From a virus (taxonomy: Duplodnaviria > Heunggongvirae > Uroviricota > Caudoviricetes): a stretch of DNA of 25,458 bases. Shown in pieces: positions 23,620 through 24,066 of the stretch. The stretch lies in IMG/VR virus record IMGVR_UViG_2778261385_000001; one strand, written 5' to 3'. Made by a program: the position numbers and the translations under genes. Numbering within the stretch: the stretch's first letter is position 1; each line of letters begins with the position of its first letter. The notes under the pieces were generated by a model. That model searched no databases. It worked only from the letters and a program-made list of their open reading frames with translations, and had not been told where the DNA came from.

Positions 23620-23996
23620 GCTTCACCTCCACAGAGGTCAGACGCTAGATGCAAAAAAACGCAGGTGCATTTCTGCATCTGTGAAGGGAGAAGAGAGTTT
23701 GGATTGTGTGTGCGCATAAACGTCCCCGTTTAGCGCAGAAGTCACCGGAGTTGTTCAGGCTCCGGTGATACAATTATGGCGAATTGATTATTCATAATCA
23801 AACAAGATAAGGTCTCAAACTTCATGCAAGCCAAGATTTATTTCTGACAGAATTATACAAAGAAGCTATTGGTCAGAATCTACTCGGACTGTAAAACATA
23901 CGCATAACCTTAAGCTCTCACTTTAAGCATTGTTGAAATAATAGCCGTCAAGTACAACCTTAACCACGACTGGGATATTTCCCTGGCTACCACGAG

Positions 23997-24031
23997 TTGT
24001 ACGGCTATTAAACTGCCGTTAAATTTAGTAA
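23997..24031 (+). promoter_or_regulatory. Candidate sigma70 promoter for the esterase gene
   Basis: TTGTAC, 17-bp spacer, TAAATT about 35 nt upstream of the ATG; the -35 overlaps one arm of a long interrupted inverted repeat. Confidence 0.3.
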
Positions 24032-24066
24032 GAGAATTTCATCCGATAAGTCAAGGCATGTAAAAC

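Follow-up and report, generated by a model that had tools for sequence, protein, structure and literature searches.

A covarying RNA leader ahead of ybcN in a lambdoid prophage of Escherichia coli: a putative translation-coupled terminator at the entry to the nin region

Gene content and module structure of the interval

The DNA analysed here, called the window, is the whole 25,458-nucleotide IMG/VR virus record IMGVR_UViG_2778261385_000001. It is a lambdoid prophage of E. coli ST131, and the segment 23560-24120 is 100% identical to strain JJ1887. We studied the 447 nt (23620-24066) that separate the start of an alpha/beta-hydrolase (esterase) gene from the start of ybcN. A sequence-only reading had described this interval as one non-coding region packed with inverted repeats and lacking a credible open reading frame (ORF). 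It is not one non-coding unit, and consists of two unrelated units joined together: a lambdoid "ninB leader" ahead of ybcN (23616-23802, minus strand), which contains a short ORF, and the 5' region of an esterase cassette (23825-24066, plus strand, 38% G+C). Two of the three inverted repeats (dyads 1 and 2) belong to the phage backbone, and the third (dyad 3) belongs to the esterase cargo.

The early-rightward operon occupies the minus strand of the window, in the order cro-like gene, O, P, inverse autotransporter (minus), esterase (plus) and orf33, followed by ybcN, ninE, ybcO, rusA, ylcG and Q. The first nin gene behind the leader, ybcN (23164-23619, minus), encodes a NinB/Orf-family recombination mediator (PHROG phrog_72, E = 2e-51). 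The esterase gene (24067-25110, plus), an alpha/beta hydrolase of the BD-FAE family (Pfam PF20434, E = 5.7e-45), is divergent from the leader.

From ybcN up to 23802 the sequence resembles DLP12, phage 82 and thousands of further prophages, and there the resemblance ends. At the esterase locus of Escherichia sp. MOD1-EC7003, where the left neighbour is different, the match to the window begins at 23818-23825. The junction between the two units is therefore 23803-23824, bounded by a homology limit on each side and situated away from the dyads, which had been suspected of being the scar of the insertion. The identical esterase-leader junction was found in DLP12-like prophages of other E. coli strains. 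In two of them (L283 and L284, from E. coli F467 and FDAARGOS_1372), the esterase cassette adjoins the leader where K-12 has ybcL-ybcM, and an emrE-type SMR gene or ybcK, not the autotransporter, lies on its far side. The MOD1-EC7003 locus (L005) has an SMR gene downstream of the esterase and no leader.

All three dyads were present where the sequence-only reading had put them. The arms of dyad 1 (23647-23657 and 23670-23680) are 11 nt long, 91% complementary and 12 nt apart. Those of dyad 2 (23742-23750 and 23760-23768) are 100% complementary around a 9-nt loop and measure 9 nt, one base pair more than the 8-bp stem reported before. In dyad 3, TAATAGCCGT (23939-23948) pairs with ACGGCTATTA (24001-24010) over 10 nt at 100%, with an additional inner pair GTACAAC/GTTGTAC. 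The same reading had named shuffled sequences with equally long dyads at similar frequency as grounds for discarding them. The interval 23620-24066 was therefore shuffled 300 times with its dinucleotide composition preserved. Perfect inverted repeats with arms of 9 nt or longer and a loop no longer than 12 nt (the grade of dyad 2) arose in 0.7% of the shuffles, repeats of 11 nt or longer with one mismatch and a loop no longer than 15 nt (dyad 1) in 4%, and perfect repeats of 10 nt or longer whose spacer did not exceed 60 nt (dyad 3) in 1%; the dyads are thus real and rarer than chance. Folding of both strands, also proposed at that time, showed every dyad to be more stable than shuffled sequence, with z-scores of -3.6 (minus) and -2.5 (plus) for dyad 1, -4.3 (minus) and -5.9 (plus) for dyad 2, and -2.9 (minus) and -2.0 (plus) for dyad 3. 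Two further features had been missed: at 23711-23737 a hairpin that covaries, and at 23784-23801 a palindrome.

Conservation and structure of the leader

A match to the interval was found in 4255 of 5426 complete E. coli genomes (about 78%). Outside the approximately 680 esterase-bearing genomes, among the matches listed, the match covers the leader end only. Phages of Klebsiella and Enterobacter carried the leader as well, as did at least 120 contigs of IMG/VR. The gene behind it always belongs to the NinB/Orf family (143-151 aa), which is represented by at least four very different subfamilies.

To describe the family, 131 distinct leader homologues were gathered from IMG/VR with two different sequence anchors. 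The 171-nt leader of the window folds with a predicted energy of -59.3 kcal/mol (z = -4.5). A covariance model with 28 scored base pairs was built from 81 sequences; it detected one copy in the window (23634-23774, minus, 132 bits) and gave no match in lambda (39500-41700) or at the MOD1-EC7003 esterase locus. Over 101 distinct sequences, 91.4% of cells paired, compared with 81.8% after shuffling and 25-36% when the partners were slid, and double changes occurred in 15 of the 28 pairs, a count reached by none of 500 shuffles. A second set of 80 loci was fetched through the downstream Orf-type protein and is for this reason not biased by the RNA pattern. The leader was found in all 80, ending 11-14 nt ahead of the start codon. 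In this protein-anchored set 94.9% of cells paired (71.7% after shuffling) and 20 of the 28 pairs had double changes; none of 500 shuffles equalled the pairing or the covariation score, and 46 of 500 reached the 20-pair count. Since the alignments were fitted to the model and the sequences are interrelated, these covariation figures are upper bounds. Independent per-sequence folds agreed with the counts from the covariance model.

At the upstream end of the leader, a sigma-70-like promoter is predicted on the minus strand (23773-23801), with a -35 hexamer TTGATT (23801-23796), a 17-nt spacer and a -10 hexamer CATAAT (23778-23773), scoring 9/12 in a consensus scan. The same hexamers are annotated as putative -35 and -10 in the phage 82 record (X92588). 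They are conserved in 106 distinct phage sequences, in which the limit of conservation falls exactly at the upstream edge of TTGAT in the -35. One divergent leader class carries a non-homologous extended -10 (TGnTATAAT) in the same place, and another has a terminator-like GGCCTTTTTCT directly ahead of the -35; both fit the start of a transcription unit. A perfect palindrome, TTGATTAT-GA-ATAATCAA (23784-23801), spans the -35 and the spacer and is a candidate DNA operator. Its pattern TTGAN-N8-ATCAN was found in 89 of the 106 distinct homologues, and a diverged class has a different palindrome, CCCG-N3-CGGG, at the equivalent position.

Known regulators were considered for this region and set aside. 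The half-sites TTGAT and ATCAA fit FNR, but their spacing is N8 and not N4. A sigma-32 heat-shock promoter, prompted by the motif GCCATAAT, was rejected on the genomic SELEX tables for K-12, which contain no minor-sigma peak near ybcM or ybcN (PMC5493296). The HusR (YnfL) site reported upstream of rusA lies elsewhere, between ybcO and rusA (PMC12844172).

Dyad 2 corresponds to hairpin A (23742-23768, minus), in which a 9-bp stem closes a loop of 9 nt, CCUGAACAA (-15.0 kcal/mol, z = -4.3). This hairpin lies at the predicted 5' end of the leader RNA or close to it. In per-sequence folds, at least 6 bp were formed by 60 of 66 distinct variants with 32 different stem cores, and double-sided changes were found in 9 of 10 pairs in the 101-sequence set and in 8 of 10 in the protein-anchored set. 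The loop, YCUGRRCAA, is retained even in the most diverged classes, while the stem differs among phages. In gap-free register the stems comprised 357 Watson-Crick, 61 G.U, 9 A.C and 14 other pairs. As the G.U pairs work only on the minus strand of the window, the selected object is the transcript in the ybcN direction. Dyad 2 had been marked as a "possible regulator-binding site" in the 1996 phage 82 record (X92588), and hairpin A as "IR4" in the phi80 record (JX871397). An operator function, which the sequence-only reading had also offered, does not agree with freely varying stems around a conserved loop or with 61 G.U against 9 A.C pairs. On this substitution pattern, hairpin A is an RNA hairpin of the minus strand and not a dimer-bound DNA palindrome.

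Immediately 3' of hairpin A is a single-stranded tail, GACUUCUGCGC (23733-23743, minus), which is nearly invariant in the main classes and replaced in the diverged L344-type class. The resemblance to a lambda-type nut site was dismissed: no boxA (CGCUCUUA-like) occurs upstream, the loop has 9 nt and the stem 5-13 bp, the conserved tail lies 3' of the hairpin, unlike boxA, and the element is independent of phage immunity type. In a search for a partner of the loop, GTTGTTCAGG-like sites had no conserved position in 128 phage loci. The 8-mer TGTTCAGG, allowing one mismatch, had 40 matches in the window against a shuffle mean of 21.5 (1 of 100 shuffles reached 40), none of them at a meaningful position.

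Hairpin B (23711-23737, minus), UGCGCUAAACG-[GGGA]-CGUUUA(U)GCGCA, is predicted within the 171-nt fold. It forms in 17 of 18 distinct segments, which represent 130 of 131 sequences; its stems fall into at least six families, whereas the GGGA loop never varies. In the protein-anchored set, 96.9% of cells paired and 8 of 10 pairs had double-sided changes. The GGGA loop is the Shine-Dalgarno sequence of a small ORF, placed 5-6 nt ahead of AUG or GUG, and in the window the AUG (23717-23715) sits in the 3' arm.

This ORF of 33 codons (23616-23717, minus), which corresponds to orf33 of phage 82 and ylcH of DLP12, is annotated in RefSeq (WP_072147164.1), contrary to the view that the interval has no credible ORF. 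Its stop TGA overlaps the ybcN start as GTGA (23619-23616). A length of 31-33 codons and an ATGA or GTGA overlap with the next start were kept in 123 of 131 distinct homologues, in which indels are in frame and the N-terminal parts cannot be aligned. Hairpin B, through its 3' arm, determines the N-terminus of the peptide, and the C-terminus follows from the Shine-Dalgarno sequence of the next gene. The centre changes (QKC to LNG; SQMQKCTC to SPMAKATG) exactly where the hairpin RNA shows compensatory changes, and the nearly invariant residues, M, T and D-F-L-H, overlap RNA constraints. No PHROG family was matched by the small ORF, and no regulatory codon runs were found in it. Judged from these patterns, it behaves as a leader ORF that needs to be translated and not as a functional protein. 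Between hairpins B and T, the minus strand carries a C-rich stretch (23684-23711) with 12 C and no G in 28 nt, which may resemble a Rho-loading (rut) site.

Hairpin T lies inside the small ORF and is followed by seven U residues (23653-23683, minus). It consists of CAG-A-UGCA[GAAA]UGCA-C-CUG (23683-23660) and U7 (23659-23653), folds with -7.3 kcal/mol, and was flagged at the same spot by a terminator scan. Compensatory variants included UGCU[UAAC]GGCA, CCG..CGG and UGGC[GAAG]GCCA, and in the protein-anchored set 99.8% of cells paired, with double changes in 4 of 8 pairs. The order of a hairpin and then a U-tract was kept in all classes, even in L357, where an unrelated 10-bp hairpin precedes the same U-tract. 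With its hairpin and U-tract, the element has the form expected of an intrinsic terminator, the predicted stem being weak. Every class also retains an A x C mismatch in the hairpin (23683-23660), whose A belongs to an internal AUG codon and whose C belongs to an ACC codon, both codons being invariant.

The earlier proposal of terminators was therefore partly borne out: a conserved hairpin with U7 is present inside dyad 1, at the position equivalent to the lambda terminator tR2, whereas dyad 2 is not a terminator because it has no U-tract. Dyad 1 itself (23647-23680, minus), AGAUGCAGAAA with UUUUUGCAUCU, is a longer alternative in which the left half of hairpin T pairs with the U-tract; its evaluated energy is -11.7 kcal/mol, compared with -7.3 for hairpin T. 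It reached 11/11 pairs in this window only, averaged 9.4/11 over 73 variants, and fell to 6-7/11 where hairpin T stayed at 8/8. As judged from these variants, the conserved pairing is the inner hairpin T (23660-23683) and not the 11 bp of dyad 1.

A long helix of CCUUCACAGA with UCUGUGGAGG (23626-23687, minus) is predicted to enclose hairpin T and to hide the ybcN Shine-Dalgarno sequence GGAGG (23630-23626). This helix was present in the inverted-repeat list and in the predicted minimum free energy fold of the 171-nt leader, and was not evident in every class. Besides dyad 1, the only alternative pairing seen was that of UUCUGC in the tail with GCAGAA in hairpin T. As a long-range antiterminator, it was rejected, as variants on either side lacked compensation.

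In other phages, inserted cassettes were found between duplicated leaders that diverge just after the U-tract. Two same-strand copies 2-4 kb apart flank a cassette in L119 (504-644 and 2967-3107), L035, L093, L104, L141 and L142; it is the first copy that diverges after the U-tract, and in L119 about 320 bp including the upstream ORF are duplicated. After the first copy in L119, a small, very hydrophobic ORF (~690-784, plus) ending in ...MEILMSWPKVVATVGAVIVVVVIIAPPICKG resembles, by its sequence, a small membrane or toxin-like peptide.

The ORF (orf33/ylcH), inverted repeats and putative -35/-10 were already known from the phage 82 and phi80 records. Covariation at the RNA level, hairpins B and T and the family-wide distribution are absent from those records. 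At the Rfam 15 gathering scores, no family, including IsrK, matched anywhere in the window, and a search of 23500-24120 at E values up to 10 gave only three chance-level matches of 13-15 bits. No functional study on ylcH, orf33 or small RNAs near ninB was found in the literature, and the leader is missing from a review of phage small RNAs published in 2025 (PMC12197685).

The esterase cassette and dyad 3

The cassette 5' region accompanies the esterase in 681 genomes of E. coli and in one cryptic-clade Escherichia; the esterase of the latter (Escherichia sp. MOD1-EC7003) shares 97% protein identity. The N-terminus of the protein, read by eye, appears to carry a lipoprotein-like signal. No plus-strand promoter was detected in 23825-24066 at the scan threshold. 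The best candidate found by eye, TTGTAC (23997-24002), 17 nt and TAAATT (24020-24025), scores 7/12. The right arm of dyad 3 does overlap this putative esterase -35, as the sequence-only reading had noted, but the candidate promoter itself lies below the threshold.

Dyad 3 (23939-24010, no strand assigned) can be written as TAATAGCC-(GTCAA)-GTACAAC ... GTTGTAC-GGCTATTA, with 15 bp, a 5-nt bulge and a 37-nt loop. It occurs once per genome, only beside the esterase (681 genomes), and is almost invariant. A 14-mer scan for variants gave mostly chance matches and four near-identical variants only. The upstream regions of esterase homologues from Erwinia, Pectobacterium and Enterobacter soli were unrelated. 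A miniature inverted-repeat transposable element (MITE) or dispersed repeat was rejected because of the single copy per genome, and an integron attC site because the core-like GTACAAC/GTTGTAC forms the inner and not the outer arms.

The most likely role of dyad 3 is to regulate esterase expression in cis; this assignment is weakly supported, and the data fit a DNA site and an RNA structure alike. A DNA operator or activator site controlling the esterase promoter, with the right arm covering the best -35 candidate, is a form of this that we put forward tentatively. It would suit the single copy linked to the esterase whatever the other neighbour is (inverse autotransporter, emrE, ybcK or a non-phage left flank), and a weak 7/12 promoter would suit the need for an activator. 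Compared with the one diverged homologue in the best register, the arms had 1 substitution in 30 nt and the surroundings 31 in 212 nt (p = 0.066). This test is underpowered and depends on the register, since in the other one 3 of the 32 substitutions fall in the arms (p = 0.41). Moreover, in the register of 10+5 bp, the three arm changes are wobble-compatible on the minus strand only (p = 1/8), which hints at RNA structure. Arms 37-52 nt apart with a bulge would be unusual for a dimer site, and no regulator gene is linked.

Direct repeats were also observed in the cassette. ACCACGA occurs twice within the dyad 3 loop (23963-23969 and 23989-23995), and TGTAAAACAT occurs at 23890-23899 and 24059-24068, where the second copy covers the esterase start codon. 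The diverged homologue alters the first ACCACGA (to ACCGCAA) and both copies of TGTAAAACAT, so these repeats are probably due to chance.

Elsewhere around the cargo, a G+C-rich hairpin (GGGAGGGCTAAGCCCTCCC) with T-runs on both strands lies at 25115-25135, between the convergent esterase and inverse-autotransporter genes, and is probably a bidirectional terminator, as judged from its form. Outside the window (L001 17854-18102), P and the inverse autotransporter are separated by very A+T-rich DNA in which T and A form long runs. This spacer has the look of a promoter region belonging separately to a second cargo cassette, and a second leader copy is absent from it.

Interpretation of the leader and comparison with known systems

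The leader is conserved and covaries, its substitutions are strand-specific, and its ORF frame and its position are kept. The reading that we favour, with moderate confidence, is that it acts as a translation-coupled terminator gating expression of the nin region, alongside dyad 3 as a weakly supported cis-element of the esterase. Because a hairpin and U-tract stand at the tR2 position and duplicated leaders diverge after the U-tract, hairpin T is read as the equivalent of tR2. The G-free stretch, the helix hiding the ribosome-binding site and the stop/start overlap together suggest a double effect of translating the small ORF, by which termination is prevented and ybcN is supplied with ribosomes.

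According to this model, a sigma-70-type promoter under the palindrome would start an RNA with the three selected hairpins A, B and T, and the leader would take the part that tR2, a plain terminator, plays in lambda. RNA polymerase would stop at hairpin T and the U-tract unless it is antiterminated or has a ribosome close behind; alternatively, Rho might load on the G-free stretch and end transcription. Leak from upstream cargo genes or from the promoter of the leader itself would then not reach the nin genes and Q. As hairpin T and the U-tract lie inside the ORF, a ribosome close behind the polymerase would prevent termination. A ribosome translating the small ORF would melt hairpin T, together with the helix concealing the ribosome-binding site of ybcN, and would pass to ybcN at the GTGA overlap.

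Several points weigh against this model. Promoter activity, termination and translational coupling are predictions from the sequence, and the covariation counts come from model-fitted alignments of interrelated sequences. Hairpin T is weak (-7.3 kcal/mol) and contains a conserved A x C mismatch. Since the conserved D-F-L-H is encoded by the U-tract, coding constraint could account for the latter. No alternative antiterminator structure was found in the leader, and the searches described above gave no partner for the invariant loop of hairpin A. A promoter directed towards Q within a prophage would be risky for the host and would need tight control. The sole expression hint is a table entry in which ylcH RNA is up 2.03-fold in microaerobic K-12 (PMC8910356).

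A serious alternative, clearly the less probable one, is that the leader yields a stand-alone, trans-acting small RNA of ~115 nt, from the promoter to hairpin T and the U-tract, with read-through as a second isoform in a dual role such as that of IsrK of the Salmonella prophage Gifsy-1. The promoter, 5' hairpin, conserved single-stranded stretches and terminator-like 3' end would all fit, the CU-rich G-free stretch could pair with ribosome-binding sites, and K-12 transcriptomics treats ylcH as a separate regulated unit (PMC8910356). IsrK, upstream of orf45 and a Q-like gene, shows that such logic exists in a lambdoid-type prophage (PMC4825925). However, no target or complementary site was found in the window or the 128 phage loci, and the element has no Rfam match, IsrK included, and is not listed in the 2025 review (PMC12197685). 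The element is always fused to a NinB/Orf gene, and 94% of variants keep the ORF frame and start overlap, which a pure small RNA would not need.

The leader might instead represent a new riboregulator class, in which the YCUGRRCAA loop of hairpin A docks a host factor (RNA polymerase, the ribosome or an RNA-binding protein) and thereby decides whether transcripts from the leader's own promoter get past hairpin T. We consider this improbable; if true, the nin genes and Q, and with them prophage induction or recombination functions, could be entered by a condition-sensing route that does not depend on N.

It is less probable still that the product of the small ORF is a functional protein of 33 residues, or a peptide that arrests ribosomes, and that the hairpins are secondary to it. 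The frame is conserved and M, T and D-F-L-H are nearly invariant, but the termini are set by the hairpin B arm and the Shine-Dalgarno sequence of the next gene, the central residues change alongside RNA changes that preserve base pairs, and the peptide, which belongs to no PHROG family, is neither hydrophobic nor toxin-like. Very little likelihood attaches to dyads 1 and 2 being DNA operators for a regulator, as in the 1996 annotation of phage 82. Both are symmetric in DNA and adjoin the promoter; nevertheless, dyad 2 varies in its stems (32 cores) and not in its central loop, its substitutions favour one strand (61 G.U against 9 A.C), and dyad 1 lies within a translated ORF ~100 nt downstream of the promoter. 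That the dyads are chance features or debris of the esterase insertion is scarcely credible: an insertion junction does exist at 23803-23824, but shuffles produce such dyads in 0.7-4%, dyads 1 and 2 covary and lie wholly in sequence common to esterase-free prophages, and dyad 3 is ~115 nt inside the cassette and not at its edge.

Whatever gates entry into the nin region affects induction, leakiness and lysis timing, as the region ends in Q, the switch for the lysis genes and, in Shiga-toxin phages, for the toxin genes. The leader is a compact element of 190 nt with clear parts that can be mutated, namely the predicted promoter, the covarying hairpins A, B and T, the U-tract and the coupled upstream ORF. 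It also marks sites of cargo insertion, which lie just upstream of the leader in this phage and in DLP12-like prophages, and between duplicated leaders elsewhere. "Hypothetical proteins" of the ylcH type are better described as leader ORFs.

Lambda tR2 is an intrinsic terminator between ren and ninB that, together with others, makes expression of nin and Q dependent on N. The 73-nt spacer ahead of ninB in lambda holds an 8-bp G+C-rich hairpin (tR2), 24 nt before ninB. The leader, too, stands directly upstream of a NinB/Orf gene at the start of the nin region, after the replication genes, and in both a hairpin is followed by a U-tract on the early-rightward strand. The two are not related in sequence, and lambda is not among the 40 listed of the 48 phage records that match the leader. 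Further, the lambda hairpin is bare, whereas hairpin T is weak and lies inside a translated 33-codon ORF, and the leader adds its own promoter-like element and two further conserved hairpins.

The IsrK/orf45 leader of Gifsy-1 has its own promoter and an internal terminator that is partly read through; its ribosome-binding site is closed by structure, and translation of a small upstream ORF switches on the downstream gene (PMC4825925), an arrangement like that proposed here. In contrast, IsrK is found upstream of orf45 and a Q-like gene and the present leader upstream of ninB. There is no sequence or Rfam match between them, and an action of the leader in trans would be hypothetical, by analogy with IsrK.

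In the pyrBI leader, a translation-coupled attenuator, the leader ORF runs through the terminator, and the terminator-like hairpin and U-tract described here are similarly located inside a short ORF. The leader differs from pyrBI in having no identified regulatory codons or pause-linked nucleotide sensing, and its ORF is also coupled to the next gene by the stop/start overlap. Compared with these systems, the element ahead of ybcN would be a cis-regulatory leader and terminator in kind, with a distinctive predicted architecture and a very wide distribution.

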